Below are positions 37,478 to 54,422 of a stretch of DNA of 56,645 nucleotides, piece after piece (within the stretch, counting starts at the first letter, position 1; each line of letters begins with the position of its first letter). This DNA comes from a virus (taxonomy: Duplodnaviria; Caudoviricetes): IMG/VR virus record IMGVR_UViG_3300024302_000397, positions 1-56,645 of that record; one strand, 5' to 3'. A program made the position numbers and the translations under genes. The notes beneath the pieces were generated by a model that saw only the letters and a list, made by a program, of their open reading frames with translations, had not been told where the DNA came from and searched no databases.

Positions 37478-39730
37478 ATGGGCTGGAATCCATTCAAGAA
37501 GACCCGGACCTACCAATACTGGAATGTAGCTACAACACCTTTATTAGATGATGCTCTACCTGATGGGTTCCATGAGTTCGCTATCATTAATGATGTTGTT
37601 AATGGTATTGACTACTTTAAGAGCTTAGACTATTTAAATTACAGTGCAGGTGCACGTACTAGGTTTAGACAGCTAAACACTAAGTTTAAAACTAAAGACT
37701 ACTTTGGTGGGTATGGTGACGTAGACATAGGTAACAACTATGTCCCTGCTAGTTTAGTTAAAGCTAGGATAAACCCTAGCAACCCTACTTATGTAACTAT
37801 TACCAATAGTTCAGTTGTTGCACTAAACTACGCTAACTGGGTATCTGGCTACTTAGTTGATACCTTTAATCTTAATACTGTTACAAACATATTTGTAAGG
37901 GATGGAGTCTCGTATACCGTAGACTTTAATACTGCAGACAGTGTAGATAACAGTGTTGACTACATGAATAACACTACACTATTATCCTACACACTAGACC
38001 TACCTCCAGAACCTGTGGGCAAGTCATATAATGTTAGTTACACAATAACTACCCCTGGTGTGTCAGGACAACCCTCTACTACTTCTCCTGTACGAACATG
38101 GACGTATGAAATAGGAACAGGACTGTATCCTGAGCTAGATGTAAATACTAGATTACCTGAGAATGACCCAACGGTCTTCCAGCTAATGCCTCCGATAGAT
38201 ATACGCAGAAACGGTGGGTACATCCACTCCAGTGCTTCTAGACATGCTGACTATGATGACTACGCTAAGAATTTAGGTATCAATCCTAAAGATATAGCAG
38301 ATGCTTTTGCTGGGCAGTCTGATATGGATAAGTTAGACCATATAGCTGTAAGTCAAGGTGTAGATTTACAAGCTAAAGACAAGCACAGTTTAAAGTACTG
38401 TATAGATTTCGTTACTAAACTGAAGGCGCTAGCCGATACCCATACTATGGGCTATAACGTTAACGGAGCTAATGATAATGTTAACCTAGGTTTTAATACA
38501 CAAGCACCTTTGGGGCTTAACCAAGATGGTACTGTCTTTGGTACTGAACATAGGTACACCCCTCAAGAGCTTGTAGACGTTCCTGGCGTAGATTTGATTG
38601 TATCCTTTGATAGTTCTTCATATGGTCTTAAGTACTCTCATATCGAGATACAGCAACATACAGCTGCTGAAGTGGAGGCTAACTCTGTTCTTAAGTCTTT
38701 AAGGGATACTGCTATCGATGTTGGGGAACATGGGCGTGTACAAGGTACTCATAGGTATAAGTCTGTGGTAAATCATGACTTCAGCTTAACAGCGACTATG
38801 ACAGGTGTCACCCTAGATGGAGGAATTTGGGGGTATTTGTCAGGAATAATAGCAAATCTCAACACAGCCAATTTAGGCACGATTACATATTACAAAATAA
38901 GTAATATAGATGGGAGTATGAGCAGTCACATGATTGTAGCTCCCGTAATATCCCATTATGTTCGTGATGCACAATCAGGCCAACATAGGCTAGTGCACTT
39001 AAACTTAAGCTCAACAGACGCTGATTTATACTTCCCTTTAGATTGGAGGATAGTTAACAGTTATAGCAATCAGGAGCTGACTTCATTAACTGCAAGCAGT
39101 ATGCATCTAAGTATGTACTATGCTTACTGGGAGCAGAAAGAAGTATGGAACTGGTCGCTCATAATAATCGTAGTAGCTGTTATTGTGTTTGTCTATACTG
39201 GGTATGACGTTAGCGCTGCTCTAGCAGAGACAGCCACTTCACTATCAGTAGCTTTAGGTGTGTCTTTGTCAACAGCATACCTAATTATGGCTGTTTCCTA
39301 CTTAGCCTCTATGGGAGTGTTTGGTGAAGACTATATCATATTAGGTCAGGTAATGACACTAGCTATAAGCATGGGCACTAGCACAGTAGCTATAGGCGCT
39401 AACATGACTACTGCTAACTATGCGTTACAGGTTATGAATATGATGAACTCATACAAGATGAGACACATCGTAGATGAAATGGAAGAGATACAGAATTTAG
39501 CTGATGCACAGCTTGTTTTACAAGATGAAATACGTGAAGAAATAGACCAAGCCTTTGAAGACATGGGGTACTATTACAACCTTAGAAAAAGACAATATAT
39601 AGCACAAGCGTTAGTCAACATTAAAAAGGTAGACCACTTTGAAGCGATGCCTTCAGCAGTGTACTTTCAGAAGATAAAGAAAACAGTATCACCAGAGTAT
39701 ACTTATAAGTTACAATACAAATACATATAA
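37478..39730 (+). CDS. Structural protein with C-terminal hydrophobic segments (N4 gp53-like)
   Basis: Synteny; LIIIVVAVIVFVYTG and further hydrophobic helices near the C-terminus. Confidence 0.65.
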   Translation: MGWNPFKKTRTYQYWNVATTPLLDDALPDGFHEFAIINDVVNGIDYFKSLDYLNYSAGARTRFRQLNTKFKTKDYFGGYGDVDIGNNYVPASLVKARINPSNPTYVTITNSSVVALNYANWVSGYLVDTFNLNTVTNIFVRDGVSYTVDFNTADSVDNSVDYMNNTTLLSYTLDLPPEPVGKSYNVSYTITTPGVSGQPSTTSPVRTWTYEIGTGLYPELDVNTRLPENDPTVFQLMPPIDIRRNGGYIHSSASRHADYDDYAKNLGINPKDIADAFAGQSDMDKLDHIAVSQGVDLQAKDKHSLKYCIDFVTKLKALADTHTMGYNVNGANDNVNLGFNTQAPLGLNQDGTVFGTEHRYTPQELVDVPGVDLIVSFDSSSYGLKYSHIEIQQHTAAEVEANSVLKSLRDTAIDVGEHGRVQGTHRYKSVVNHDFSLTATMTGVTLDGGIWGYLSGIIANLNTANLGTITYYKISNIDGSMSSHMIVAPVISHYVRDAQSGQHRLVHLNLSSTDADLYFPLDWRIVNSYSNQELTSLTASSMHLSMYYAYWEQKEVWNWSLIIIVVAVIVFVYTGYDVSAALAETATSLSVALGVSLSTAYLIMAVSYLASMGVFGEDYIILGQVMTLAISMGTSTVAIGANMTTANYALQVMNMMNSYKMRHIVDEMEEIQNLADAQLVLQDEIREEIDQAFEDMGYYYNLRKRQYIAQALVNIKKVDHFEAMPSAVYFQKIKKTVSPEYTYKLQYKYI

Positions 39731-39750: not shown

Positions 39751-40188
39751 ATGAGTTATCCAAAATTTAATAACTACTGGGGTGGACAGAACCCTAACCC
39801 ACTGCAAACAGCTAATAGGTCACACCTTATGGGCTTACAGCCAACAGACCAAAACAAATTCATAGAAGATACGTTTGGTGATAATAATAATTTAGACCAA
39901 GAGTTTGACCTAGGTTTGAATATGGGTACGCTACAGCTAGGTACTGCTGCTCTTGGTGCATGGAATGGGTTTACGGCGAATAAACGAGCTAAAGAGGCTA
40001 ATCAGATAGCTAGAAATCAACTTAACCAGAATGCTGAAGCATTTAACATTAATACAGGTATGCAAGTAGCTACACTGAATGATGAGATTGGCAGATACAA
40101 TGCACATGTTGGTGGTTTCTTAGATGAGAGCCAACGTAGAGACACGTTTGATCCAGATCAGTTTGGTAAGTTATCCACATACAGTTAA
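39751..40188 (+). CDS. Small ejection/internal virion protein (N4 gp52-like)
   Basis: Synteny; Gly/Ala helix then A..QL.Q..EAF; Cys-free. Confidence 0.65.
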   Translation: MSYPKFNNYWGGQNPNPLQTANRSHLMGLQPTDQNKFIEDTFGDNNNLDQEFDLGLNMGTLQLGTAALGAWNGFTANKRAKEANQIARNQLNQNAEAFNINTGMQVATLNDEIGRYNAHVGGFLDESQRRDTFDPDQFGKLSTYS

Positions 40189-40197
40189 GGAGTTAAC

Positions 40198-42399
40198 ATG
40201 TTAAATTGGAAGAATGTACAGTATGCAAATGGTTCAGGTCTTGTAAACGCTATTAGGGGTAACAATGCTCAGATTAATGAAAATAACAAACAGGTTGTTG
40301 ATTCTATTTCCCAATTTGGTGATGATTACTCTAAGACACAGACTGATGCAGCAATTGCAAGATTAGCTGGTTCTACTGATCCTCAGCAAGCTCAAGATAT
40401 CCTAAGAAGTTATGCACAGGGTGGTAATGGTTTTGTAGATCAAGGTCTATTAGCAGACAGCTACCGTGACCAGACTCAAGAGTTCAGAGATAATGCAGCA
40501 CATGCAGATACATTACTGACAAATAAATCATCGCGTGCAGTGAATGAATATAAGTTATCTCCAGAGTACCAAAAGTTAGAGCAAGATAAGATAAATGCGC
40601 AGATAGCAGGGTATGCTGCGCAAACTGCAGGCTATGATGCTCAACTAGAAAATTATAAGAATCAAGCTGATGCTATCAATATGAAGAATAATATTTTAAG
40701 AGGAGCCTTCCCTCAATACTTTCCAGACTCCACAAATACAAGTGTTCCTCCTAATAACTCACAAGTTACTGGAGATTTGACAAGTAATTCTAATACTTCT
40801 ACTAATGCTCCCTCAATTGTAAACTCTGCAACAGCGAGTATTCTAAATAGTACTATGCCGGGTATGGGAGACGTACTAACTTCACAGAATAATGATAGGA
40901 ATTCAACATACTTGTTAACTAAGTATGCTAAAAATTTATCTGGTGCTAATACACACGCAGCTACTTTTGCATTAAAACAGGAAATGCTACGAGAATTAAA
41001 TGCCGGTGGTGTATCTCCTCAGAACAGTAATCAAACAGTGAACCAAGTATTTGGTACTTTTGGGGTTACTCCTCCTAAGGATATTGAATCAGCTAATTCT
41101 TTAGATAATCTTGCTAGTATACGAGATACTGGAAATGCCTTTACATCCACAGGACAAGTGGGGGATGCTATTAATCTAAATGAATCAGATTTCGTAAAAG
41201 GATTTGGAGACGTAAAAGGTAAAGGTATGTATCAATCTATGCTTGGTACTGCATATACAGACGCGGTAAGTCAAGCAGGCACTCTTGCGTTTAACCCACG
41301 GAATCCCCAAAATCCTTTATCACCGTCAGTAACTACTAGTAGAACTAATGCTACTAACTATAAGAAGTTTCGTGAAACAATCGCTGAGTATCCTACGAAC
41401 GTTCAGGAAAGCGTAACTGCTAGATACGTTGCAGAGAATAAGATTAATGTTGACGAGATTAAAACGTATGAAGATGCGCTTAAATCTGACCAGTCACAGA
41501 TTAAACGTAATATATCTAAAAAGCTATCTAATAATGAATATGACCTTACTGACTTAAATGGTGACTTACAAGAACTGCACGGTATCGATATTAATACACT
41601 GACAGGTATTCATGATTTAGCAGTATCACAAGTAGTGAAATTTATTAGTACAGATAAAGATTCTATGTCATTAGCTGAGACAGCTAGACAAATGCGCCAA
41701 GAGACCTACTCTGAAGTCTACACAGATAAGGAGATAACGCAGGCAACTGTTAATATAGATAATTTCGGGAGTAGATTAAACTCTCTTCTTGATAAGATGT
41801 TACCGGGTTCCTCCACAAATGTTAAAAAGACATTACTAGCTAATCTAAAAACAAGGTTTGGCTTTGAAGATATTCAAGCTAAATTAGATACACGTAAGAA
41901 GACAATTAAGGCTACTTCAGGATATTTTGACTCTTCGCAATTTACACCTTTTAGTATTGGTTCTGTACAGGCTATGATTTCAAATGAGAGAGGAGATAAG
42001 GATAATCCATACACAGGTAATGAGGGAGCTATATTAGAAGAAACAGCCACTAACTTTATAAATAAAGCATTAGCTAAAGCTAAAAAAGAGGCAACTGTTA
42101 TTCCTACTGACTTCCCTAACTATTCTGAGTATAACTTAAAGCGTGTAGCTTACAAAGCGTTTTCAGAAGTCTTCGCAGCAGACGATGAGGGATTAGAAGA
42201 TGATGACTGGATATTTAATTCATCTCCATTAGGGGATGATGAGATTGAAACTACTGGTGTACTGGGTAATAGGCAAATAGATATTGAAGCAGGAACTAAC
42301 CCTAAAGCTTACTCTCTATTTATTAAGAGATATAAATCTTTACTTAAGTCGAGTTCTTCACAACTAAAAGAGCACATTAAAGCAAAAGTAAGCCAATAA
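40198..42399 (+). CDS. Ejection/internal virion protein (N4 gp51-like)
   Basis: Starts MLNWKNV; 733 aa, Cys-free; immediately before the vRNAP locus. Confidence 0.65.
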   Translation: MLNWKNVQYANGSGLVNAIRGNNAQINENNKQVVDSISQFGDDYSKTQTDAAIARLAGSTDPQQAQDILRSYAQGGNGFVDQGLLADSYRDQTQEFRDNAAHADTLLTNKSSRAVNEYKLSPEYQKLEQDKINAQIAGYAAQTAGYDAQLENYKNQADAINMKNNILRGAFPQYFPDSTNTSVPPNNSQVTGDLTSNSNTSTNAPSIVNSATASILNSTMPGMGDVLTSQNNDRNSTYLLTKYAKNLSGANTHAATFALKQEMLRELNAGGVSPQNSNQTVNQVFGTFGVTPPKDIESANSLDNLASIRDTGNAFTSTGQVGDAINLNESDFVKGFGDVKGKGMYQSMLGTAYTDAVSQAGTLAFNPRNPQNPLSPSVTTSRTNATNYKKFRETIAEYPTNVQESVTARYVAENKINVDEIKTYEDALKSDQSQIKRNISKKLSNNEYDLTDLNGDLQELHGIDINTLTGIHDLAVSQVVKFISTDKDSMSLAETARQMRQETYSEVYTDKEITQATVNIDNFGSRLNSLLDKMLPGSSTNVKKTLLANLKTRFGFEDIQAKLDTRKKTIKATSGYFDSSQFTPFSIGSVQAMISNERGDKDNPYTGNEGAILEETATNFINKALAKAKKEATVIPTDFPNYSEYNLKRVAYKAFSEVFAADDEGLEDDDWIFNSSPLGDDEIETTGVLGNRQIDIEAGTNPKAYSLFIKRYKSLLKSSSSQLKEHIKAKVSQ

Positions 42400-42412
42400 A
42401 TAGGAAATCTGT

Positions 42413-45400
42413 ATGGGTAACTATAGCGTATCGTCAGACATTTTTTCAGACTATGATGACTTATACTTTAAAGACTTAAAGAAGAAAAAGCTAGATGCTG
42501 TTTTAGAGCGTAAGAACGCTGCTATACAATCGTTAAAGGGTGTCCATGATGCTGATACATTTGTATACGAAGACCCTATCACAGGGAATACTTCCAGTAC
42601 ACGAGCTGGAGCTCCTAATAGCACATTAGATACAGCTGAAACCTTTAAAGGGTTTGCTAAGCCATACGCAGAAGGTAGAAATGGTGTTAGAGATACTCAT
42701 GCAAGGGCTTTAGCCTCTGATTTAGGTATGCATCCATCCCAGATAACTGATGATATGCTTAATCAACGTGCGTTGGAATCTAAGGCGTTTGCTCAAGACC
42801 TACTAATGCAGGATCAGCCTAACCCTGAAGACCCACAGACACAAGTTACAGTCCACGGTGAAGATAAATACAATAGACCTATTACTGAATCGGTTAACCC
42901 ATACACAGGCATTAATATTAATAGGGCCCTAAATACTCCTGAGCATAATCTGAACTTCTATTCGAAGTACAACAAGATACCTGATATTAACTATGCTGAA
43001 AAAGGTGATGATAAGATAAAACCTTTTACTGTTATAGGCAATGAAGACGGTACGTATGACCTTACTGTTCGAGGCGGACTTAAATACCCAAATATTCCTA
43101 ATCCTGAGATAGAACGCAAAGAATTCATCCCACATATAATCGACCCTAATACTGGAATGGTTCCACAGTTACTTGGTGAATACAGAGTATCTGATTTCGT
43201 AGGCAAAGCATTATCTGGTAACTTAGAAAGTACTTTAGGTAAGAAAGGTGAGAATGAGACCGTAGGTGGTCGTTATGATAACTTTTCAAGAAAAGGGCTA
43301 AACGAACAAGAGCTTAAGGATTGGATTGAAGCTTTCAATCCTTTCGTAGAATACGAAGGGTACACTGGTTACATTCCTAAAGAGGATTTTAAAGACACTA
43401 CAAGTACTGGCGCAGAGTTTTTAGCTAAGGCAGGTTGGAGTGTAGCTGATGAAATACAGCACTATAACACCAAACTACAAACATTCCTAGAGTCAGATGA
43501 GGGCAAGAAAGCCTCTATGAAAACTAGAGCACAAGAAGCAGATAAGTTATGGAAAAATAGCTTAGTTGTTTTTAGTGACCCTGAAGAAAACTTCAATAGG
43601 GCACAAGCTCAACGTATGGACACTCTCGACTATATCGAGAATATGTATTCAGAGCGTAAAGAAGAATCTTTTGGCAAGTTAGCTGAATCTGCAGCACTAA
43701 TGATAGAGATAACTGCAGGCTTGCCAGGGCAAGCCGTAGCTACTTGGAGTACTCATGATAGGATAGTAGAGGAATTCGAGAAACATGCAGGAAGAGCTCC
43801 TACTAGTTTAGAAGATGGCCAAATCTGGGGACTCGCAACAGTTAGTGTTGCAGGTGAAAAGTTTGCTTTAAAGACTGTATTAGGTAAGAACCCTTTTGTA
43901 AATAAGGCACTAGCAGACTTTACAGCTAATTTCCCGGCCTTTGGAAGGGCACTTGGAACTACATTTGGTTTAGGTGCAGCTGGTCTAATTTCAGAAGGCT
44001 CTTCTGGTGTTATATCAGACACTGCTGAAACTATAGGAGCACATTTAGCTGAGGGGTATGTATTCCCTACGTCCACACAAGCACGAGAATCGTTCTGGAT
44101 GGAAGCTATGCCTGGTTCCTCTATAGGTACCATATCAGGAGCAGCTAAAAGTACTACTACATCTAGTGATACTGCTGCACTGAATGGGTTGATAGCTGAC
44201 TTAGGTAGAGGTGCCCCTACTGTTGAGTTAACTATTGATGAGGAGACTAAACTCAATAAAAAGATTGACGCTCTAGACGATAAACTACGTAGTTCAAGTA
44301 TCTCGGATGCCCATAGAGTTAAGTTAATGTCTAAGAGAGACGAGTTAACTAAACAACGATTGGAGGGCAAGCCTAATAAAGATGCACTCTCTGAAGAGGG
44401 ACGTAAAGATTTAGAGTCTAGTATCCAGACACTACAAAATAAGATCAATGATAAGGCTGCTTCTCCTAAAGGATTAGAGTCTGCAATTAAAAAAGATACT
44501 AAAGCGGTCAATAAACTAAATAAAAATATAGAGAGGCTAGAAGCTTTAGAGCAAACTGATGAAGTAGTACAACTAATACAGGAAGCCAGACAAGAAGTTG
44601 AACTGCTCGAAACTAATATAAAAGATTCTAAGGCATCTTTAGGTATTCTTAATGTAGATGATACTGCCAAAATTAAGCCAGTAGAGGGTGACTCTCTAGA
44701 ACTGCTTAAAACAATCCCAGGTAAATTAGAAAATTCTGATGAGCTATCTATTGAAGAGCTTCAGTCCCTAATTGCGCAATATGAACGTGCTGCTACTGAT
44801 GTAATGCAACGTTTTGTGAAAGGTGAGACAGAGCTTAAAGAAGCACAACAAGAGTCTTTTAGAAGAGTTAATGAGTACATGGAACTCCTTGAGAAGCGTG
44901 TTGACCTAACTGAAGCTAAAAAGACTATTGAGAAGAGTTCTGAGAAAGACCAATATGTATATAGCTTAGACCACACAGATGAGGGTTCTGCGCAGACTCT
45001 TAATGAGATACTAGCACAGGGCACACTTACCCCAATAGAGACTGAAGTAGTCCAGGCTAAGCAAGAAGTTATTGAGGCGAAGCAAGGATTAAGTAATAAT
45101 GCTAAGAATATCGAAGATGTTAATGAAGACATTACAGGAAAAGGCTCTAAAGACTTCATATCTTTCAATCAGCACTTAGATAATGTAGTATCAGGTACAA
45201 ACGCACTAGCTGCTCAATCAGGCCTAGAACAGTTTGCTAAGCATATGCAAGGTAAAGCAGAGACTCTGCGTGCAGCATATGATAAATTCCTACAAGATGG
45301 TAATATTGCAGAAGTTGAGTATAGAGGAGTTACATATGAAATTAATAATTCTACAGAGACTCTACTTGAGTACGTAGAGAGAGAAGCTGCGTATGGACAG

Positions 45401-46309
45401 AAGGTAGTAGCACTCTCTAAGAAAGTATCAGAAGCTACTATAAATAGGGAAGCTGATGTAGAGGTAACTGCAGCTAAATCACAACTAACTCTTAATGAGA
45501 GGTTGCTAGGTAAAGTAGATACATTTAATAAAAAATCTCCACAAGAGACTGTAGACCCTATTAAGAAACCAGAAGAAGTAGTAAAGGTACAGGCTGAAGC
45601 CAAGCCCACTACTCCTGAAGCGCCTAAACAGACGCAGTCTGTGGAGGGCGCTGCTAAATACACAAAAGCAACTAATCAAATAACTAAATTAGTTAAGAGA
45701 GCGGAGAAGCTTGATACCCAAGTATCTGACTTAAACAGTAAAACAGAAGAGAATAGTTTATTCCCTGGCACTCTAGAGATACCCGTAGCTGAAGCCAAAG
45801 CAAAGATAAATACTCAACGTACTAAAATACGTGATAACTTCAATAGGATTGCTACTAGATTTGATTTAGATATAAAAGACGCTGACATCAAGACTGACCA
45901 GCAAGAAGAGATGCTGTATTCATTATTAGATGGAGCAGTAACACTAGGCAGCAAGGAAGTAGAGGATAAGATTAGAGCTATTAGCTCAGACTATGCAAAT
46001 CATAAGACTGAAGTTGTTGTTGAAGAAGCGGTTGATGTTGAGGCGCTACAGAGATTAGATGAGTTACAGAATAAGCCTAATACTGAACAAGCTAAACCTA
46101 AAGCTAAAGAAGAAGTCAAGGTAGAAAAAACTCCTGAGAAGACTCCACAAGAAACCATTAGTCCTGAGATAAGTACTGTACAATTACTTGAATCCGGAGC
46201 GGCCTATGAACAGGGAGGCGTAGCTAAAGTATACGCTGTAGGCCATTACAGTAAAGCTCAGTGGGTCACAATTGCAAAAAAACTAGGAGTATTACCAGAT
46301 GTCTGCTAA
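42413..46309 (+). CDS. Large internal virion protein, probable N-terminal part of a split virion RNAP, with an SNase-like N-terminal domain
   Basis: Occupies the vRNAP 5' position; Gly/Ala hydrophobic hairpin region, coiled coil, FAKHMQGK segment; only Cys is the last residue; HDADT...DTAE...DKYNR motifs. Confidence 0.65.
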   Translation: MGNYSVSSDIFSDYDDLYFKDLKKKKLDAVLERKNAAIQSLKGVHDADTFVYEDPITGNTSSTRAGAPNSTLDTAETFKGFAKPYAEGRNGVRDTHARALASDLGMHPSQITDDMLNQRALESKAFAQDLLMQDQPNPEDPQTQVTVHGEDKYNRPITESVNPYTGININRALNTPEHNLNFYSKYNKIPDINYAEKGDDKIKPFTVIGNEDGTYDLTVRGGLKYPNIPNPEIERKEFIPHIIDPNTGMVPQLLGEYRVSDFVGKALSGNLESTLGKKGENETVGGRYDNFSRKGLNEQELKDWIEAFNPFVEYEGYTGYIPKEDFKDTTSTGAEFLAKAGWSVADEIQHYNTKLQTFLESDEGKKASMKTRAQEADKLWKNSLVVFSDPEENFNRAQAQRMDTLDYIENMYSERKEESFGKLAESAALMIEITAGLPGQAVATWSTHDRIVEEFEKHAGRAPTSLEDGQIWGLATVSVAGEKFALKTVLGKNPFVNKALADFTANFPAFGRALGTTFGLGAAGLISEGSSGVISDTAETIGAHLAEGYVFPTSTQARESFWMEAMPGSSIGTISGAAKSTTTSSDTAALNGLIADLGRGAPTVELTIDEETKLNKKIDALDDKLRSSSISDAHRVKLMSKRDELTKQRLEGKPNKDALSEEGRKDLESSIQTLQNKINDKAASPKGLESAIKKDTKAVNKLNKNIERLEALEQTDEVVQLIQEARQEVELLETNIKDSKASLGILNVDDTAKIKPVEGDSLELLKTIPGKLENSDELSIEELQSLIAQYERAATDVMQRFVKGETELKEAQQESFRRVNEYMELLEKRVDLTEAKKTIEKSSEKDQYVYSLDHTDEGSAQTLNEILAQGTLTPIETEVVQAKQEVIEAKQGLSNNAKNIEDVNEDITGKGSKDFISFNQHLDNVVSGTNALAAQSGLEQFAKHMQGKAETLRAAYDKFLQDGNIAEVEYRGVTYEINNSTETLLEYVEREAAYGQKVVALSKKVSEATINREADVEVTAAKSQLTLNERLLGKVDTFNKKSPQETVDPIKKPEEVVKVQAEAKPTTPEAPKQTQSVEGAAKYTKATNQITKLVKRAEKLDTQVSDLNSKTEENSLFPGTLEIPVAEAKAKINTQRTKIRDNFNRIATRFDLDIKDADIKTDQQEEMLYSLLDGAVTLGSKEVEDKIRAISSDYANHKTEVVVEEAVDVEALQRLDELQNKPNTEQAKPKAKEEVKVEKTPEKTPQETISPEISTVQLLESGAAYEQGGVAKVYAVGHYSKAQWVTIAKKLGVLPDVC

Positions 46310-49300
46310 ATGTACTAAGGAACTGATTGTAGAGAGTATTACTAATGCAATAAACACACAACCACAGACAGAAACTGCAAAGGTATTTAAGTCTACTGTC
46401 AATAACTTCGTAGGGTACATAGCAGAGCTTGGTATTAATAACTCTCAAGATTTAAATGTGCATATACCTAAAGCTGACGTGTTTGCCCCTTACCTACATA
46501 AGATAGGGGAAGTGCTAAATGAAGGCAATAAATTATTCTTAGTTAAAAATAGAGACACAAAGTCTTCTACTTTCCTAGAGCCATCTACCTACAAGAATTC
46601 TGATGAGTTAGTAAGTATTTTTATGGAAGCTGGGTTAACCCCAGAGCTATCAACTCAACTAGTAAAACTATTCAAGGCATTTACAACTAAAGTAAATCAA
46701 GAATTGAAAAGCAGTAATACTGTCTATGAAAATGACGTGTTACCCCTACTATATGGAGCTAACAAAATAGAAGGACGTGATACTACGTATCACTTACCTG
46801 CGCCTGTATTGTTCAGTGCCTCTACTTCATTACTAAGATGGTTTGCTACAGATGGTGCGCGTACATTAAACACTTTCACAGACACACAAATACAACTAAT
46901 AGTTGGAGCTGAACGTACTTCTGATATCTTAGATGAGACATTAACTGCTTTCCGTAATTTAGATCACGGTGGAATGTTGAGGGGTGAGGCTGCAAGGTCT
47001 TTAGGCTCATTGATATTTGACTCACTAAATATTAAAAGCAACTTAGCTACATCATCAACAATATTAGATGACATTCTGGCACATCAATTAGGAGCTTTAG
47101 CTCTAGAGATTGGCGTTAAGATGGGACTTATTAAGTCTGCTGAAGTAGTCTATAAGGTCAATCAAAATGGGAAGTTAGTCACTAAGAAGTTTGCACATTA
47201 TTACATTACACAAAAAACTATTGATGTTAATAATATAGATATAAAAAAGATTACAGACCATTCAAAACACTTAGACAGTTTCTTTGGGGTTAACCAGTCA
47301 TTTAATGCACCGTCTGCTACCCCTTTACCTAACGTTTCAAAGAATGTTAGAGGCTCGTTAGGCTCAGTTAGCCCACAAGCACACCAAGTAATCAATAAAT
47401 TAGTTAATACTGAGTGGACAGTCAATAGTGCTTATCATTTATATATGATAGGCAGTGACACTGCTAACGCACCTCTACAAGCTAAAGCAGTAAAGCTTAG
47501 AAAAGTATTAGCTGGTGTAACCTTTTTAAATCCTAGTGATGCTCTTAACGTGCATGTTGATTTAGAAGAAGGTATTAAAGCTAAAGATAGACAACTATTA
47601 GACCAAATTAAAGTAATTAAGAAGTATTCAGATAATAATCTAATAAATAGCTTCTACTTACAGTGGAAATTTATGGCTCAGCATCGTATGATGATTGAGG
47701 GTGAGCTAGACCCTATGTCTGCTAAGAATGTAGCACGCTTTTTACTTAAGCCTGCAAAATCTAAGAGTATTATTGTAGACCCTGCCACTAAGGACTCTAA
47801 AGCTGTTATCTCCTTTAAGGTTGCTGTAGCTCAGCATTTTGATTTAAGTGTTGATAAAACAGACGTACAAGGTTCTCTAGAGCTATTTGACAGTGTATTC
47901 AGTGATATGGAGAATGAGCAGTCTGCTTTAAGTAGAGCAGTTCAATCTGTTATTCAACTCAGTATTAAGCCTAATGAAGTTACGGAAGAGAACTACTTAG
48001 ATGCTATGCTAGAGTTACACACTAAGTACCCTGGAGCTAACACTGCGTTAATTATGGCAGTGAATGCTTTAGCACAATACCAATCAGCTCTAGAAGAAGA
48101 TACTACGTTTACCACAGACATCATCGCTGAAGCTGATGCTGTTACTAGTGGTTTTGGAATTGGTTTAATGCTGTTCCCAAGTAACAACATGGACGACATG
48201 ATGAGGGAGCTCAATCGTGTAGGTATGATTTTTGAGGGACAAGTACCTTATTCTGAACAAGTAAAGAATGCGAATGGTGCAACTCCTGATGGGTATCTAA
48301 ATTTTGCTAATGCTTTATTTGATAAGTTTGAGAATTTACCAAGCTACTTAGATACTAATGGTGAACATGTAGACCCTAAGGTGGCTGAGAGTCGATTTAA
48401 GGCGTTTAATACTATATTTGCTCCACTAGTTACTAATAGACGTAATGCTGGCAAGCCACCATTTATGGTACTAAACTATGAAGGTGGCGCTGCTAAGGTA
48501 GCTAAAGAATTATCTGTTAGCTTAGTGGATTCTTTATTTGAATACATCACAGAAGCTCAAGGAAGATATACGAATGGTAGCCCAGAAGTAAAAGCAGAGA
48601 TATACAAAGAGCTTGCTACTATGTTTAAATCTATGAGAGTGCTTACGAAGAGTAAAGCAGGTAAAGAATATCTACCTGGAGGACTTACATCAGGGGTATT
48701 AAAAACTCTATTAGCTACGAATGAATTACATAGATATAGCTTTAATGAGCCTCTGTATAGAGGGTCTCCTATTAAATACAGAGACTATTTAATCTCTAAA
48801 CTAGGACAGGCGTTAACTCCTGCCATTAAAGTAGCTGCTGCTGAGACGATAGTGAACTCTGAGATAAAGTCTGACTTTATTAAAGCAGGAGAGCTTCAAT
48901 ACTTTATTTTCAAAGTCAAGTATAACAATCTAGTTAAAGAAGTAGCTGGACGCTCAGAAGGTAAGTTATTCCCATCACAGCGTAAAGAATTAGCTAGGGA
49001 GTTAATTGATTTCTATCCTAGAATTGCACTTAAACACCAAGACGGTACAGAGTCATTTATTGATTTAGTTAAGTCGACTCAGATACAGCACTCTACTAAA
49101 TTTGAGCTAAAATTAAACAGTGGAAATGTTAGTACTAGAATGCTGACGTACTCGTTTGCTCCTCCAGGAGTTTCTACAGTAGTACGCTCTATTCAAGGTA
49201 CAGATGCTGTGAAATTGCAAGATTCAATTAGTATTCCTAATGTTGAGAATACAGAAATTCCTTTGTTACCTCTGCATGATGCTGTTATGGAAGTGATAGG

Positions 49301-52300
49301 GCAACTGCCTACTACTAAGGGAGTGTATAACTCAGGTTTTAAGAGTTTAGCTAGTGATACAGGATTTGATTTATTCACCCAAGTAAATGAGCTACTAACC
49401 TCATCATGGAATATGCTTACACCTGCAGAACAGCACGCAGTTAGAGAAGCTTACCTTAAGCATTCATACTTAAATCGTAATGAAGACAGTGAAGTCTCAT
49501 TTGATAGTGTAATGGGCACAGTTCAACGTACTGCTAAGGAAGTCCAGCAGAACAGAGGTGAATTAGCTAAAATGTTAGAGACAGCTACAAGTGAACATAT
49601 GTATATTGCATCACCTGAGTCAACTGAAAATGTAGATTTTTCAGCTGAAGCAGAAGCACTTAAACAGTCATTAGAAGAGAACAGTAAGGATTATCAACGT
49701 TCTAGCCAGTACAAGCTACTTAAAGACAATAGAGAGTTATTCCGAGTATTAACTAATCGACTGACTGAGATGTTCCCTAATATCACGCTAGAAGAGCGTG
49801 ATACATTAGTAGACATACATGGTGAACAGGTATTGGGTAATGCTATAGGCACTGCTATTCAGTACTCAAACAGCAAAGGAGCTCTTGATACAGTTCCTCA
49901 TGAGTATGCTCATGTGTACTTAAATCTATTAGAGCACACTACCATTATCAGTAAGCAGATTTCTACAATCCAAGCAGTTCACAATGTGAACAGAAAGGAA
50001 GCTAAAGAGATTTTAGCTAATGAGATGGGAAGAATCTTTACAGATAAGGTGCTTGAAGGCAAAGGCAAGAAGACTCAAAGTATTGTTAGAAGAGTATGGG
50101 AGTTTATTAAAGAAGTATTTAAACCTCTATATCTATCAACAGAGAAAATGCGAGCTGAGTATATCTACCGTGAGTTGGCATGGAAACTAATTAATGGTAT
50201 TTCAGGTGAATCACTTACAACTACACCTAAGAAAGGCTATACCTTACAAAAGTTTGACACTATCCTAAAGAACAACAAGTGGGGAGCTGAGGTTATCGAT
50301 ACTGTAATAAGTAAGATGCTTCCAGAAGCTCTTCTTGTAGGTAGTCTTGCGTTAACTGCAGCAGGTAATGTATATCGTAAAGGAGTAGGTAGTCTGCATG
50401 ATATCGACTTTGCTATGCCTCTTACGTCATTCAAGCCGGGGAGAGGACTGAAAGGCAATATCAAGACTTACTTTCCAGGAGCACAGCTGTTATATGAATA
50501 TGATAATGCTACAGATATTGACAAAGCCACTGAGAAGGTGCTTACCTACGTAGTTCCTCCTACGGGGACACAAATAGCTAATGTACAGAGGTTTGATGAA
50601 TCAGAGTTTGGAAGAGTTATTGCATGGGATGTTGTGGATTCAAAGAATCCTTCTAAAATTCTAGGTACTTACAGGGCTGAGGCAACGAAAGACTTAAGCG
50701 CTCCTGAGTGGTCAGTTAGGTCTAAATTAGTTAGTGAAACTTCTACCGGGGTAGAGGCTGTATTAGTAGATTTTCTAACTGATATAGGAGTTGCCCCAGC
50801 TACCAGTGTATATAGTACATATCTAGGTAAGATGGTTAAAGTTGCGAGTCCTAAGTCAGTGTTCACAGCTAAGAATAGCATTACTAAGGAAGATATTCCT
50901 CGAGATAAAGATGTGATGGACTTTAATTTATTTGCCCCAGATAAGGACGGTGTTACGCCTCCTGATCTATTCGGAGAAGTGATTAAAGGAAGTAGTTTTG
51001 CAGAGTTGCTAGAGAGTTCGACTACATGGCATAATAATGCTCCGTTGTCTTCATCTGCTCTAGTCATCTTTGATGGATTAGGTAAGCAGGACCTACACTA
51101 CGATTCTGCACATGCAGAGCATTTACAAAATATCTTACATACGCTTGTGCTAGAGCACATGGCTAACGTAGAAGATGTAGTAGTTCAGACAGCGTTCATA
51201 AAGGGAAAGACCAGGGGAGGGTTTAGTGAGGACTTGAGAAAGGTTATAGTTCAACTAAATAAAAATGCTCCTATTACCTATGCTGAGCAAAGCCCACAAG
51301 AAGTTTTTGTACACGAAATACTTCATGCAGTGATAGACCATGTATTAGCTGCTAACCCTCGTTTACAGGTAGAGTTAAGTAAGCTACATAGAGAAGCTAT
51401 CAAACACATATCTGTAGATGATTTCCTAATTGATGGTATTAAATCAGATGAAGTAGCAGAAAGGGCAATTGCTACACAGCAATATGAATATGTTTATAGA
51501 GATTCTACAGAATTCCTAATTTATACATTAACTAACAAAGGGTTACTTGCAAAGATGCAGACTACTGCCCCACCACGCTCTACAAAATTGTGGGAAGGTG
51601 CAGAATTCTCGGATAAGATAATTAATTTAATTCAACATATGATTAACGCTTTTAATACAAAAGTGCGACATAAGAAACTTACTACCTCACAATACCAAGA
51701 TTTCTTTAACTTAGGTTTAAAAATAGCGACTATTAACTCAAAACATGAGAAATCCCTAACAGTTTTAGCTAAGAAATTTCATATAGAAGCATTAGTTGAA
51801 CAAGGGATGGATAAGGTAGCAGATGTTATGGTTAAGTCTACTGTTAGGACAGGACAGTTCTTATTTAAAAATACGGAAATAGGCAAGACTATTGGGCATA
51901 TTAAAGAATTGCCTGATTCTATTAGAAAAGTCGCAACTGAAAGTGCGTTCCTTAAAGCATTTGCTGCGCTGAATGATATTGAGCAGGTAGAGTCCTTATC
52001 TTTATTAGTTAAAGATTTGATAGTAGGTACAGGAAGTATGGATATTATGGACCTTGTACTTAAAGCTAAAGGTTTAATTGATTCTACGCGTATACACAGA
52101 GCTAAATCATTAGTTAAAAAGCTGAGAGCTCACACTAAATCTAAAAAGGCTATTGATGGTAGTGAGCAGACTGCTGTAACTAAAGTTTTTATAAAGACTG
52201 ATATACAATCCCTATTAAAATCGGGACGCTTTGATATTGCTGAGATTATTAAATTAATTAAGTACCCTCAGCTACTTCATAATAAGATAGCTGAATATGA

Positions 52301-54422
52301 AACTAGAGTGGGAACGTCTACTAATAATTTTTATAGCCAGCAGGTAGAGGGTTTAGCTAGCTTTATGGTCCGTACAAGCTCTGTAAGTGCTTTACAAGGA
52401 TTAAATGCATCTAGGATATATCAATTGCACCAACAGCTATATGGTGAAGAGGTACTTAAGGATGCAGGCATCATACAAGAACTCGATATATTAATTAGTT
52501 TAACAGCTTTGCAGAATGTTCCTGAATCTACGAAGACTAAAGCTCTTAGAGTGGCAGAAGAAGAGATGTCTTTAGATAATAAATCTAATCTAATCACTAC
52601 TCTTATAGAACAGCATAAAGTATTGGTTGGGGAAAATCTAGAGCATAACTTTAACAATAGTCCGTATGCAATGATTAAGGGCTACACACGTAACTCTTAC
52701 AACTCTAATATTGAGATTGTTAGTGCTCCTTTAGATGATAAGAAACAGATGCACAAAGATGGATATGTATTCTCACATGAATTACCTTATATCCCTGGCG
52801 TAAACAAAACCAGATTTGGGTTATTTGTAAATCCTTATAATCCTGAAGCAGGAAGAACAACAGGTGTTATCCCTTACAGTGGACAAAAGTCCAAGGGTAC
52901 TACTTTATTCGAGATTCTATCTAATGATGAAGCTTATCAAAAGCAAGACCCTACAACAGGGAATATGGTGGGTGATATTAAACTAATTAGACCTGTTATT
53001 GATAGATATATTGACAAGCAAATAGAGCTTCTAACTGCTCAGGTGACGAGTGGTAAGATGGGTAGCAATACACAGTTAATTCCTTTGATTAATGAAGCAG
53101 GCGAGATTTATGATTTCCGTGTGATGATGTCTACATCTATGCAAGAGAGTTTGTTAGACCCTGATATGACATACGAAAACGTTATGTCACAGCTATCAAT
53201 TCATTATATTGATAGAAAAATGACTGGGGAGATTGAAAAATCAAGTATGGAATATCTTGTTCAGGTTATGAATACTGAGTACAAGGGGAGCAGAGATAAA
53301 AGCTTTATTAATATTTTAGATGGGAAGTACCGTGAAAAGTATTTCCTACCTCTTTCCGCGACTTTTAAAGCAAGGGTGAAGGCTAACTCAATAAAAACGG
53401 ATGCTGGAGATGTTTTCCCAATTAAAAAAGAGGAATTGCATATCTTATTTGGTGCTAAGGACATGTCTGTCCGCGACCTTCCTTATTATGATTCGTATCC
53501 TGCACCTCTTAAGAGGTCTTTACTCAGAGTAAATGCTACTACGCTTGCAGTAATTAGGATAGCAGTTACTAACATTATTTTAAAAATGCCTGAAGTAATC
53601 ACAGACAACATAGTTAGTAACACTATTATCTTATTGTTAAATGGTGTTAATCCTGTTAAAGCTGTACAGGGACAACTACAAGTAGTTAAAGATTTAAGGG
53701 AATGGAAGAATACATCTGCAGAAATGATAGATTTGTATTACACCTATCATGGCAGTGATATTAAGAATAGGAATTTATTACTTCGAATAGAAGCACTAGG
53801 AAACTCTTTGAAAAAGAGTCCTATCTTTGAGCTAATGGATATGCAACTATTTACTTCTATGGTAGAAGAGATTAACTTGAAAGAGAGTTCTGCTGCGGAT
53901 AGATGGGCAAACAGTGTAGAAGCTAAATTAGGTAAGTATGGTGCAGCACCTGTAATGGGTGCTGCTAAATTGCTTTATATGACTAAATCTACAGCATTAT
54001 ATCAAGGGATGCAGGAAGCATTCCAGATGTCTGACTTCTTAGCTAGGGTTGTATTAAACGACCACTTGAAGAAGACAGGTATGTCAGACAATGAACGTAA
54101 ACGTACTATATACGAGACGTTTGTACTATATGACGTACCGGGCACTTCTAGATTAGCCACTTTCATAAATAAGACCGGTTTTACATTCTTCTGGTCGTAT
54201 TTTATTAAACTACAACGTGCTATCTTTAGAACTACTAAGAGACGTACTAAAAGTGTGTTGTTCCTACTAGGAATGCAAGAAGCAACTAATGTCGATGTAC
54301 CTGACATATTTGATTCAGCGATAGTTACAGGTAACTTTGCTCCACCTTTATCTAATCCAGTAGAAGCACTAGAGCATGTAATCAAGTTACCTGGCGTAGA
54401 ATTTATAGACGACCTACTTTAG
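46299..54422 (+). CDS. Virion RNA polymerase (N4 gp50-like), catalytic and C-terminal part, with HExxH and nucleotidyltransferase-like domains
   Basis: Motif A EADAVTSG (~48130), motif B RRNAGKPPFMVLNYEG (~48440), motif C LHDA (~49275); HEYAH (~49900) and HEILH (~51311); AGGAG RBS; a single Cys at residue 5. Confidence 0.88.
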   Translation: MSAKCTKELIVESITNAINTQPQTETAKVFKSTVNNFVGYIAELGINNSQDLNVHIPKADVFAPYLHKIGEVLNEGNKLFLVKNRDTKSSTFLEPSTYKNSDELVSIFMEAGLTPELSTQLVKLFKAFTTKVNQELKSSNTVYENDVLPLLYGANKIEGRDTTYHLPAPVLFSASTSLLRWFATDGARTLNTFTDTQIQLIVGAERTSDILDETLTAFRNLDHGGMLRGEAARSLGSLIFDSLNIKSNLATSSTILDDILAHQLGALALEIGVKMGLIKSAEVVYKVNQNGKLVTKKFAHYYITQKTIDVNNIDIKKITDHSKHLDSFFGVNQSFNAPSATPLPNVSKNVRGSLGSVSPQAHQVINKLVNTEWTVNSAYHLYMIGSDTANAPLQAKAVKLRKVLAGVTFLNPSDALNVHVDLEEGIKAKDRQLLDQIKVIKKYSDNNLINSFYLQWKFMAQHRMMIEGELDPMSAKNVARFLLKPAKSKSIIVDPATKDSKAVISFKVAVAQHFDLSVDKTDVQGSLELFDSVFSDMENEQSALSRAVQSVIQLSIKPNEVTEENYLDAMLELHTKYPGANTALIMAVNALAQYQSALEEDTTFTTDIIAEADAVTSGFGIGLMLFPSNNMDDMMRELNRVGMIFEGQVPYSEQVKNANGATPDGYLNFANALFDKFENLPSYLDTNGEHVDPKVAESRFKAFNTIFAPLVTNRRNAGKPPFMVLNYEGGAAKVAKELSVSLVDSLFEYITEAQGRYTNGSPEVKAEIYKELATMFKSMRVLTKSKAGKEYLPGGLTSGVLKTLLATNELHRYSFNEPLYRGSPIKYRDYLISKLGQALTPAIKVAAAETIVNSEIKSDFIKAGELQYFIFKVKYNNLVKEVAGRSEGKLFPSQRKELARELIDFYPRIALKHQDGTESFIDLVKSTQIQHSTKFELKLNSGNVSTRMLTYSFAPPGVSTVVRSIQGTDAVKLQDSISIPNVENTEIPLLPLHDAVMEVIGQLPTTKGVYNSGFKSLASDTGFDLFTQVNELLTSSWNMLTPAEQHAVREAYLKHSYLNRNEDSEVSFDSVMGTVQRTAKEVQQNRGELAKMLETATSEHMYIASPESTENVDFSAEAEALKQSLEENSKDYQRSSQYKLLKDNRELFRVLTNRLTEMFPNITLEERDTLVDIHGEQVLGNAIGTAIQYSNSKGALDTVPHEYAHVYLNLLEHTTIISKQISTIQAVHNVNRKEAKEILANEMGRIFTDKVLEGKGKKTQSIVRRVWEFIKEVFKPLYLSTEKMRAEYIYRELAWKLINGISGESLTTTPKKGYTLQKFDTILKNNKWGAEVIDTVISKMLPEALLVGSLALTAAGNVYRKGVGSLHDIDFAMPLTSFKPGRGLKGNIKTYFPGAQLLYEYDNATDIDKATEKVLTYVVPPTGTQIANVQRFDESEFGRVIAWDVVDSKNPSKILGTYRAEATKDLSAPEWSVRSKLVSETSTGVEAVLVDFLTDIGVAPATSVYSTYLGKMVKVASPKSVFTAKNSITKEDIPRDKDVMDFNLFAPDKDGVTPPDLFGEVIKGSSFAELLESSTTWHNNAPLSSSALVIFDGLGKQDLHYDSAHAEHLQNILHTLVLEHMANVEDVVVQTAFIKGKTRGGFSEDLRKVIVQLNKNAPITYAEQSPQEVFVHEILHAVIDHVLAANPRLQVELSKLHREAIKHISVDDFLIDGIKSDEVAERAIATQQYEYVYRDSTEFLIYTLTNKGLLAKMQTTAPPRSTKLWEGAEFSDKIINLIQHMINAFNTKVRHKKLTTSQYQDFFNLGLKIATINSKHEKSLTVLAKKFHIEALVEQGMDKVADVMVKSTVRTGQFLFKNTEIGKTIGHIKELPDSIRKVATESAFLKAFAALNDIEQVESLSLLVKDLIVGTGSMDIMDLVLKAKGLIDSTRIHRAKSLVKKLRAHTKSKKAIDGSEQTAVTKVFIKTDIQSLLKSGRFDIAEIIKLIKYPQLLHNKIAEYETRVGTSTNNFYSQQVEGLASFMVRTSSVSALQGLNASRIYQLHQQLYGEEVLKDAGIIQELDILISLTALQNVPESTKTKALRVAEEEMSLDNKSNLITTLIEQHKVLVGENLEHNFNNSPYAMIKGYTRNSYNSNIEIVSAPLDDKKQMHKDGYVFSHELPYIPGVNKTRFGLFVNPYNPEAGRTTGVIPYSGQKSKGTTLFEILSNDEAYQKQDPTTGNMVGDIKLIRPVIDRYIDKQIELLTAQVTSGKMGSNTQLIPLINEAGEIYDFRVMMSTSMQESLLDPDMTYENVMSQLSIHYIDRKMTGEIEKSSMEYLVQVMNTEYKGSRDKSFINILDGKYREKYFLPLSATFKARVKANSIKTDAGDVFPIKKEELHILFGAKDMSVRDLPYYDSYPAPLKRSLLRVNATTLAVIRIAVTNIILKMPEVITDNIVSNTIILLLNGVNPVKAVQGQLQVVKDLREWKNTSAEMIDLYYTYHGSDIKNRNLLLRIEALGNSLKKSPIFELMDMQLFTSMVEEINLKESSAADRWANSVEAKLGKYGAAPVMGAAKLLYMTKSTALYQGMQEAFQMSDFLARVVLNDHLKKTGMSDNERKRTIYETFVLYDVPGTSRLATFINKTGFTFFWSYFIKLQRAIFRTTKRRTKSVLFLLGMQEATNVDVPDIFDSAIVTGNFAPPLSNPVEALEHVIKLPGVEFIDDLL

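Follow-up and report, generated by a model that had tools for sequence, protein, structure and literature searches.

What holds together a virion RNA polymerase (vRNAP) that in coliphage N4 is a single giant chain, when a phage encodes it in two pieces? The question is raised by positions 42413-54422 of the stretch of DNA analysed here, IMG/VR record IMGVR_UViG_3300024302_000397 (hereafter the window, meaning its whole 56,645 bp; 39% G+C), a contig from an uncultured marine N4-like phage with an estimated completeness of 76%, in which two overlapping open reading frames (ORFs), ORF1 and ORF2, occupy the place of the one N4 gene. The original prediction, made from the letters of the window, was that these encode an injection domain and a polymerase that may be tethered by one disulfide and released by reduction in the cytoplasm. 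We arrive at a closely related account: the locus is probably best explained as a naturally split vRNAP that is rejoined by one interchain disulfide, Cys1298-Cys5. The features on which the argument turns are these:

42413..46309, + strand: ORF1, N-terminal piece (N-piece) of the split vRNAP, 1298 amino acids (aa)
46163..46306, + strand: conserved C-terminal module of ORF1, residues 1251-1298, ...STVQLLESGAAYEQGG..KVYAVGHYSKAQWVTIAKKLGVLPDVC, most residues invariant in alignment A1
46284..46289, + strand: TAG closing the ORF2 frame (46284-46286), overlapping an AGGAG ribosome-binding site (46285-46289); conserved in loci L005-L010
46299..54422, + strand: ORF2, C-terminal piece (C-piece) of the split vRNAP, 2707 aa, with polymerase domain and C-terminal domain
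46304..46306, + strand: TGC codon for Cys1298; ORF1 has no other Cys and ends ...LPDVC
46311..46313, + strand: TGT codon for Cys5; ORF2 has no other Cys and starts MSAKC; an invariant column (C5) of alignment A2
47685..49280, + strand: catalytic motifs of a single-subunit RNA polymerase, all invariant in alignment A2, set beside the N4 motifs
51030..54419, + strand: C-terminal domain, about residues 1578-2706 of ORF2, from BLASTP to P0019 and P0011

A virion RNA polymerase encoded by two genes

ORF2 is matched by the virion RNA polymerase profile phrog_2206 (E 8.2e-191), and tblastn gives matches in 455 phage records, the strongest of which include annotated vRNAPs. It carries a QHRMM motif (Arg463), motif A (AEADAVTSG, which begins at residue 610, close to where it had been predicted, and contains Asp613), motif B (Lys719/Tyr727/Gly729) and motif C (His993-Asp994); the residues expected of a T7-like polymerase, R463 (the Arg of TxxGR type), D613, K719, Y727 and D994, are invariant in A2. 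Presumably they have the roles of the matching residues of the N4 enzyme. The C-terminal domain of ORF2 is also recognisable, with residues 1588-2684 aligning to P0011 2356-3463 (E 4e-57). Searches of solved structures by sequence, with either ORF2 or the A2 profile, gave no match at E <=0.01; they missed the N4 vRNAP itself, and are therefore too insensitive here.

ORF1 left fewer traces: sub-threshold matches of coiled-coil type in Pfam, none in PHROGs, none by tblastn against 50,697 phage records, nothing in a first scan of viral contigs with ORF1 alone, and no usable match for residues 1040-1298 in a protein atlas; the junction gave no blastn match to phage records. A phmmer search with residues 99-1298 against 1.84 billion representatives returned 16 proteins at E <=1e-3, among them two fused vRNAPs, P0019 (3799 aa, E 1e-21) and P0024 (3880 aa, E 2.7e-13), each matched in its N-terminal region. 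BLASTP places the two ORFs on P0019 in colinear blocks: ORF1 1-193 and 393-650 on residues 1-250 and 484-738, and ORF2 158-764 and 1578-2702 on residues 1615-2232 and 2632-3793 (E 1e-99 for the last). It is from these blocks that we identify ORF1 plus ORF2 as a vRNAP cut in two, ORF1 being a homolog of the N-terminal domain of the fused ~3800-aa enzymes. When profiles were compared, four rows of the ORF1 family against the N-terminal domains of four fused proteins, the alignment was colinear as well (probability 8.8%, E 0.0038), a weak result that is not relied on because the phmmer and BLASTP matches supersede it. ORF2 thus joins the N4-like vRNAP family by the phrog_2206 profile, and ORF1 by way of the N-terminal regions of the fused giants. 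The idea that the injection domain and the polymerase are separate polypeptides is supported by the homology of both ORFs, and the relationship of ORF1 to the vRNAP N-terminus, on which the idea depended, has been found.

N4 gp50 gives the scale of the comparison. Translated from NC_008720 it is 3500 aa long with 0 Cys, and the model of its polymerase domain begins at residue 1007 (PMC13434306), in agreement with the original prediction, which compared the locus with a Cys-free protein of ~3500 aa whose polymerase domain starts about 1000 aa in. ORF2 aligns to it by BLASTP in two blocks, 432-785 to 1390-1745 and 1665-2637 to 2449-3429, offsets that put ORF2 residue 1 at about N4 residue 959. 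In gp50 a disordered 100-residue linker, 907-1006, joins the N-terminal domain to the polymerase (PMC13434306); the break between ORF1 and ORF2 falls inside the region of this linker, and ORF1 is the equivalent of the N-terminal domain plus most of the linker. The two systems share their domain order (N-terminal domain, T7-like polymerase, C-terminal domain), their catalytic motifs, their place at the end of a gp53-gp52-gp51 ejection operon and a near-total avoidance of Cys. They differ in that gp50 is one chain without Cys, whereas the window has two genes with one Cys at each new end, and in that the window N-piece has a conserved C-terminal module of ~48 residues that the fused forms do not have.

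The split is genuine

Where an N4-like vRNAP would be one polypeptide of ~3500 aa, the window has two ORFs with a stop, a ribosome-binding site and an ATG between them. The overlap of ORF1 and ORF2 is 11 nucleotides (nt; 46299-46309), AGGAG lies 9 nt ahead of the ORF2 ATG, and the TAG that closes the ORF2 frame lies four codons before that ATG. A run of seven A residues (A7; 46276-46282) is upstream of the TAG, so that an insertion or deletion (indel) in it cannot fuse the two frames. Re-reading of the window sequence bore out each of these elements of the original prediction: the coordinates, the overlap, the AGGAG, the TAG and the argument from the A7 run.

We nevertheless considered whether the split could be a sequencing or assembly artefact of a single metagenomic contig, bearing in mind that this contig is uncultured and of limited estimated completeness, and that the A7 run is near the junction. 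Such an artefact is almost certainly not the explanation. Public sequence was checked as assembled contigs from sequencing runs: the stretch 45800-46800 is present in full in 17 runs from 14 marine or seawater studies, and contigs of runs X1, X5 and X6, from three studies, span the junction with 0 differences and no indels, some of the runs whose contigs span it being possibly the source sample of the window; in run X18 a variant strain covers 46278-46487 free of gaps. No error that would fuse the ORFs was found in these contigs. No fewer than six other assemblies, with proteins 25-98% identical, show the split architecture again, and a stop/start arrangement is kept in all other loci examined in which the junction is present. 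An 11-nt overlap, a TAG in the ORF2 frame and (A/T)GGAG are common to L005-L010; L012 and L013 differ, with TAATG and the opposite frame relation (-1, vs +1 in the window). Finally, an indel in the A7 run would run straight into the TAG.

An error-type split, moreover, looks unlike that of the window. The vRNAP of Shigella phage pSb-1 is likewise called 'separated' in the literature (PMC10654107); its three ORFs (gp101-103) have 0 Cys and are joined by what look like plain frameshifts, at which the downstream frame continues the N4-like sequence without a start. It serves us as the contrast case, although the three ORFs are annotated as genes (NC_023589 60193-70981; our locus L016).

A lone cysteine at each new end

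The sole Cys of ORF1 is indeed its last residue and the sole Cys of ORF2 its residue 5; the two proteins together have 4005 residues, of which the other 4003 are Cys-free. Other window ORFs of >=150 aa contain 0-2.6% Cys. For one randomly placed Cys per protein, hand arithmetic puts the chance that the ORF1 Cys is among the final 2 residues and the ORF2 Cys among the initial 6 at (2/1298)x(6/2707) ~ 3e-6. Across 191 Schitoviridae the vRNAPs have a Cys frequency of 0.00075%, and the strong avoidance of Cys in their ejection operon has been ascribed to passage through the periplasm (PMC11445570). The window departs from the Cys-free state of N4-like vRNAPs by exactly one Cys per piece, at the junction end.

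Relatives that have the split all keep the pair. The original prediction named relatives without the terminal Cys, a sequencing error that fuses the ORFs and a lack of vRNAP homology in ORF1 as refuting conditions, and it came through all three. A single Cys is the last or penultimate residue in 9/9 full-length N-pieces, with identity to ORF1 as low as 25%: the endings are ..LPDVC (window, P0004, P0005, P0006, L009), ..LPDGC (L006/L007), ..GVCK (P0016/L012 and L013) and ..NICK (P0026). In 7/7 intact C-pieces exactly one Cys is present, at residue 4-6, the sequences starting MSAKC (window, P0009, L009), MSVKC (P0008), MGVKC (L006), MAAGNC (P0010) or MQLC (L012); P0010 and P0026 each show one side of the junction only. 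Fused vRNAPs (N4, PG11, Alteromonas phage A5, P0011, P0019 and P0024) have 0 Cys in 6/6 cases. Three further matches, P0017, P0018 and P0028, are partial or N-terminal and Cys-free. In L006 the codons GAT GGG TGT TAA replace GAT GTC TGC TAA of the window, so that flanking residues are changed in both frames while the Cys is kept, and the junction nucleotides of L012 are unrelated to those of the window; both observations point to a constraint on the proteins, not on an RNA signal.

A quick tree (LG+G4, 13 rows) groups the window, L009, P0008, P0009, L006 and P0010 in one well-supported clade. It sets L012 and the fused P0011 beside this clade in no resolved order, and one origin of the split between N-terminal domain and polymerase is for that reason indistinguishable from two.

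A further observation concerns the end of the N-piece: its last ~48 residues are far better conserved in A1 than the remainder. The core of this tail, ..KKLGV..C, is kept in the distant P0016, and P0026 ends similarly. A hidden Markov model of the module found nothing significant in six fused vRNAPs. We name the module as a candidate docking element.

The same design in a second split and in another phage family

Among cultured phages, two are entered in a survey as having 'separated' vRNAPs, which its authors put down to error or read-through and concatenate (PMC10654107). One is pSb-1, discussed above; Alteromonas phage AD45-P1 has a vRNAP in two clean ORFs. Its N-piece (2481 aa) includes the polymerase, with motif A at 1921, and has one Cys at residue 2479 (..HCKQ), counted from the first Met, vs two Cys in PMC3821669; its C-piece (1409 aa) is the C-terminal domain and has one Cys, at residue 4 (MTIC). 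Homologs of this C-piece (27-91% identity) have a Cys at residue 2-5 in 34/34 cases, and it is the sole Cys in 33 of them. AD45-type loci L018, L019, L020 (=L022) and L021 repeat the arrangement, with a single Cys in the last four residues of the N-piece and a single Cys at 3-4 of the C-piece. For AltAD45-P1 to P4, Garcia-Heredia et al. (2013) confirmed the stop by polymerase chain reaction (PCR) re-sequencing and found both polypeptides in virions; in the accessible part of their paper the Cys in the large protein is taken as a sign of non-injection, and no bond is proposed (PMC3821669). In RefSeq the vRNAP of AD45-P1 (NC_021532 90623-102305; L015 2624-14306) has no coding sequence, only a misc_feature 'potential frameshift'.

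The AltAD45 phages are thus like the window in having a naturally split N4-like vRNAP with a single terminal Cys pair (..HCKQ*, MTIC..), and unlike it in the site of the break, which is polymerase/C-terminal domain in the former and N-terminal domain/polymerase in the latter; correspondingly, the motif A Asp of the window is residue 613 of the C-piece, vs motif A at 1921 of the 2481-aa N-piece in AD45-P1. The two splits are independent, with a Cys pair found at both of the flexible linkers.

A parallel from another family, Saffermanviridae, adds a structure. In the virion of cyanopodophage A4, cryo-electron microscopy (cryo-EM) resolves a disulfide between Cys1715 of gp27 and Cys5 of gp26, both ejection proteins, in which no polymerase is reported in the accessible part of the paper (PMC12002296). 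In the A-4L genome, gp27 is 1717 aa with one Cys, three residues from its end, and the adjoining gp26 is 1114 aa, starts MSKHC and has one Cys, at residue 5. The window has this same gene design: adjacent genes for large ejection proteins that are otherwise Cys-free, with the sole Cys at the upstream C-terminus and near residue 5 downstream. BLASTP of A-4L gp27/gp26 against ORF1/ORF2 detects no similarity (best E 0.044), and the likeness is one of design, not descent. A disulfide seen in the virion is known only for A4.

A proposed mechanism and its alternatives

On our account the vRNAP has been split within the flexible linker between a membrane-acting N-terminal domain and the polymerase domain. 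ORF1 and ORF2 would be co-transcribed and translationally coupled through the 11-nt overlap, ORF2 having its own ribosome-binding site, and both products would be packaged in the virion, where the N-piece would dock on the C-piece, perhaps via its conserved last 48 residues. The thiols would oxidise after the particle leaves the cell, and Cys1298 and Cys5 would form one interchain disulfide in the virion. This would rebuild an almost linear chain of ~4000 residues, joined head to tail and with no more than a 4-residue stub left over. The N-piece could then pull the polymerase piece after it along the tail, in the manner of the one-chain N4 enzyme, and the linked chain would follow gp51 and gp52, as has been proposed for N4 gp50 (PMC13434306). 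A more speculative last step is that the bond is reduced in the cytoplasm, which would release the polymerase from an anchor that is permanent in N4.

We hold these parts with different confidence. That a disulfide joins the terminal Cys of ORF1 and ORF2 in this phage we consider quite likely, and the case for it is strengthened by the same Cys pair at the AD45 split and by the bond in the A4 cryo-EM structure (PMC12002296). In independent events the Cys are always found 0-3 residues from one end and at 2-6 of the other, which suggests that a head-to-tail topology has been selected for. For reduction of the bond in the cytoplasm, freeing the polymerase from a membrane-anchored N-piece, we would give even chances.

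Several points weigh against this account. The disulfide is inferred, in this phage as in N4-like phages at large, and, as the phage assembles in a reducing cytoplasm, it could form only late. The lineages with the first split type may stem from one split event, and within that type the pattern would then reflect retention, not repeated origin. Extra Cys occur: fragment P0022 has two (CxxC) in an inserted domain besides its terminal Cys, fragments P0025 and P0027 have Cys in tails outside the region that matches ORF1, the AD45-type C-piece P0037 has a second Cys at 1066, and P0007 has a second Cys, located in a frameshifted tail. This last one is spurious, as is the odd ..KRCHGL ending of P0007; both result from a frameshift near 15276-15340 that breaks the ORF2 homolog of L010 (10688-18836) into ORFs of 1550 and 1186 codons, stop to stop. 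Lastly, the AD45 virion proteins run as two gel bands, of 270 and 175 kDa (PMC3821669). Two bands are expected if the gel was reducing, yet they show no link.

Three alternatives that accept the gene structure need to be set against an interchain disulfide. The split could be real and the two Cys not bonded to each other, each serving instead in like-with-like disulfides, in a bond with another virion protein, in metal binding or in a modification. Several vRNAP copies per virion (4 +/- 1 in N4; PMC13434306) make like-with-like bonds geometrically possible, the gp53-like neighbour has one Cys that might be a partner, and no result of our analysis places both Cys side by side. A prediction of the complex of ORF2 1-500 with ORF1 1199-1298 from alignments A2 and A1 scored 0.00, the partner's own fold being uncertain, and weighs neither for nor against the bond. 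At two different split sites, however, the Cys always come in pairs on the newly made ends, and fused forms lack them; the single solved case, A4, bonds the two different pieces (PMC12002296), and a metal site would usually need more than two lone thiols. We therefore think Cys that are bonded elsewhere improbable. A little less probable still is a purely non-covalent association through the C-terminal module of ORF1, with the Cys acting, for example, as a redox sensor, or with an incidental bond. High conservation of the last ~48 residues, without a counterpart in fused vRNAPs, is what a docking element would lead one to expect, but docking alone leaves unexplained why a sole Cys is tolerated in the face of strong selection against Cys (PMC11445570), and the AD45 clade and A-4L show the same Cys pair though their N-pieces end differently. 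Both alternatives appear to match the comparative pattern less well than the disulfide does.

It might also be proposed that one fused protein is made after all, by programmed frameshifting, hopping or read-through, with the conserved junction acting as the signal for it. Across L005-L010 the nucleotides at the junction are strongly conserved, and read-through was suggested for 'separated' vRNAPs in the survey cited above (PMC10654107). Against this, the ORF2 frame is closed by the TAG four codons before an ATG that has its own ribosome-binding site; no slippery motif was seen in the 20 nt from the TAG to the ORF1 stop; frame relations vary (+1 in the window, -1 in L012/L013), while in AD45-P1 and A-4L the two genes are 5-7 nt apart; and AD45 virions contain two polypeptides (PMC3821669). 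We regard recoding as very unlikely, and an interchain disulfide between two separately translated pieces remains the reading that we prefer.

Other candidates were dropped. A programmed ribosomal frameshift gene does not describe a locus in which the ORF2 frame is closed by TAG and the frame relation varies by lineage, and a +1 shift at TGC-TAA-A was set aside on the grounds that the P-site tRNA would not re-pair and that the spacing of the ribosome-binding site suits initiation, not shift stimulation. Intein halves have a Cys that starts an N-intein of ~100 aa, and a C-intein ahead of the +1 Cys. A split intein or trans-splicing was rejected: there is no Pfam domain in ORF1 or ORF2, the Cys of ORF1 is its last residue, and the Cys of ORF2 has just four residues ahead of it. 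Lipoprotein-type or prenyl-type modification was also discarded, there being no signal peptide and no fitting motif.

Implications

The components of this account were published separately: the split vRNAP in 2013, Cys avoidance in 2024 and the disulfide between ejection proteins in 2025. A search of full-text literature, in which subscription journals and supplements were not covered, returned no report of a vRNAP split at the N-terminal-domain linker and none in which the splitting of vRNAPs is connected with paired Cys at the junction. The link between split vRNAPs and ejection-protein disulfides appears to be new.

At least three cases fit a pattern that we analogize to stapling: N-terminal domain/polymerase in the window, polymerase/C-terminal domain in AD45, and gp27/gp26 in A4. 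That terminal-cysteine stapling is a general, repeatedly evolved rule for broken Cys-free ejected giants, with the bond doubling as a redox-triggered release, is a tentative generalisation that we think less likely than not. Under such a rule every break would bring a Cys to either new end, and a disulfide would remake the head-to-tail chain so that it can pass the tail. If the rule is true, cytoplasmic reduction would free the polymerase from a membrane anchor in the window phage, or from the C-terminal domain in AD45. In N4, inhibition of the polymerase by its C-terminal domain has been reported.

The N4 field has yet to explain how an enzyme of 3500 residues gets out of the phage head by way of a ~35 Å channel (PMC13434306). 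The natural splits can be viewed as an experiment by evolution: a break is tolerated at either linker, apparently only when a covalent end-to-end link is restored, which argues for threading as one linear chain. The pattern names two residues whose change should abolish threading, and the idea is directly testable, since both the AD45 phages and the Alteromonas that they infect are cultured. There is also a lesson for annotation. Split vRNAP genes should not be 'repaired' or concatenated as frameshifts, as was done in RefSeq and in one survey (PMC10654107), and a lone terminal Cys in an ejection protein should be taken neither as an annotation error nor as a sign of non-injection.

Variable parts of the two pieces

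Directly before the conserved C-terminal module, the ORF1 relatives P0006, P0020, P0022 and P0023 carry differing inserts. P0006 is labelled 'glutaredoxin-related protein' by one source, yet has a single Cys; the P0022 insert holds the CxxC, and P0020 begins with a stretch resembling the motif C region of a polymerase. These inserts may be variable cargo domains.

In ORF2, residues ~1100-1560 (window 49596-50978, + strand) contain few invariant A2 columns, which suggests that the shorter P0010 (2289 aa) mostly lacks the segment. It includes an HExxH motif (HEYAH) and the stretch GSLHDIDF, has no Pfam match, and gave no usable match in the protein atlas. The segment may be an extra enzymatic module that enters the cell with the polymerase.

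Gene neighbourhood

The gene order of the window is that of coliphage N4, as judged against N4 and Vibrio phage PG11. The genes run from the large terminase through tail-fibre genes, portal (30771-32942), gp57-like, major head and gp54-like to gp53-like; there follow a 145-aa ORF, a 733-aa ORF, ORF1, ORF2 and a convergent gene for a single-strand-binding protein. ORF1 and ORF2 therefore stand where the N4 vRNAP gene stands, after gp53/gp52/gp51-type genes and near the capsid and portal genes. The genes just upstream are:

37478..39730, + strand: N4 gp53-like virion protein, 750 aa, 1 Cys (phrog_2220, E 2.3e-22; position as gp53 in N4 and PG11); it opens the ejection-operon neighbourhood
39751..40188, + strand: 145-aa protein in the N4 gp52 position, 0 Cys, placed by synteny, with a weak phrog_16623 match (E 6e-5)
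40198..42399, + strand: 733-aa protein in the N4 gp51 position, 0 Cys, placed by synteny only; no PHROG or Pfam match

Between 37000 and 56000, promoter-like sites are not commoner than in shuffled sequence (52 vs 55.1), and the same was judged to hold for terminator-like sites (15 vs 9.7); neither kind is found at the junction.

Comparison of window 40198-44200 with L009 7863-11800 reveals mosaicism. ORF2 is 97.5% identical overall between the two, and in 100-column windows the last ~700 residues of ORF1 are 77-98% identical, while the first ~600 are only 32-47% identical; the proteins in the gp51 position are 39.5% identical. The front half of the N-piece seems to have been exchanged together with the gp51-like gene, which fits the contact between gp51 and the N-terminal domain that has been proposed in N4.

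Two further window genes relate to transcription. A 172-aa protein (154-672, - strand) has the C-terminal domain of a bacterial RNA polymerase alpha subunit (PF03118, E 1.6e-18, a match that passes the curated cut-off), and this phage-borne domain could affect host transcription. A 606-aa ORF (4357-6177, - strand) resembles N4 RNAPII, matching two different PHROG families of this type, phrog_2051 over residues 286-537 and phrog_2166 over residues 11-411. N4 RNAPII consists of two subunits; in the window, where the virion polymerase is split, the middle polymerase may have become a fused one.

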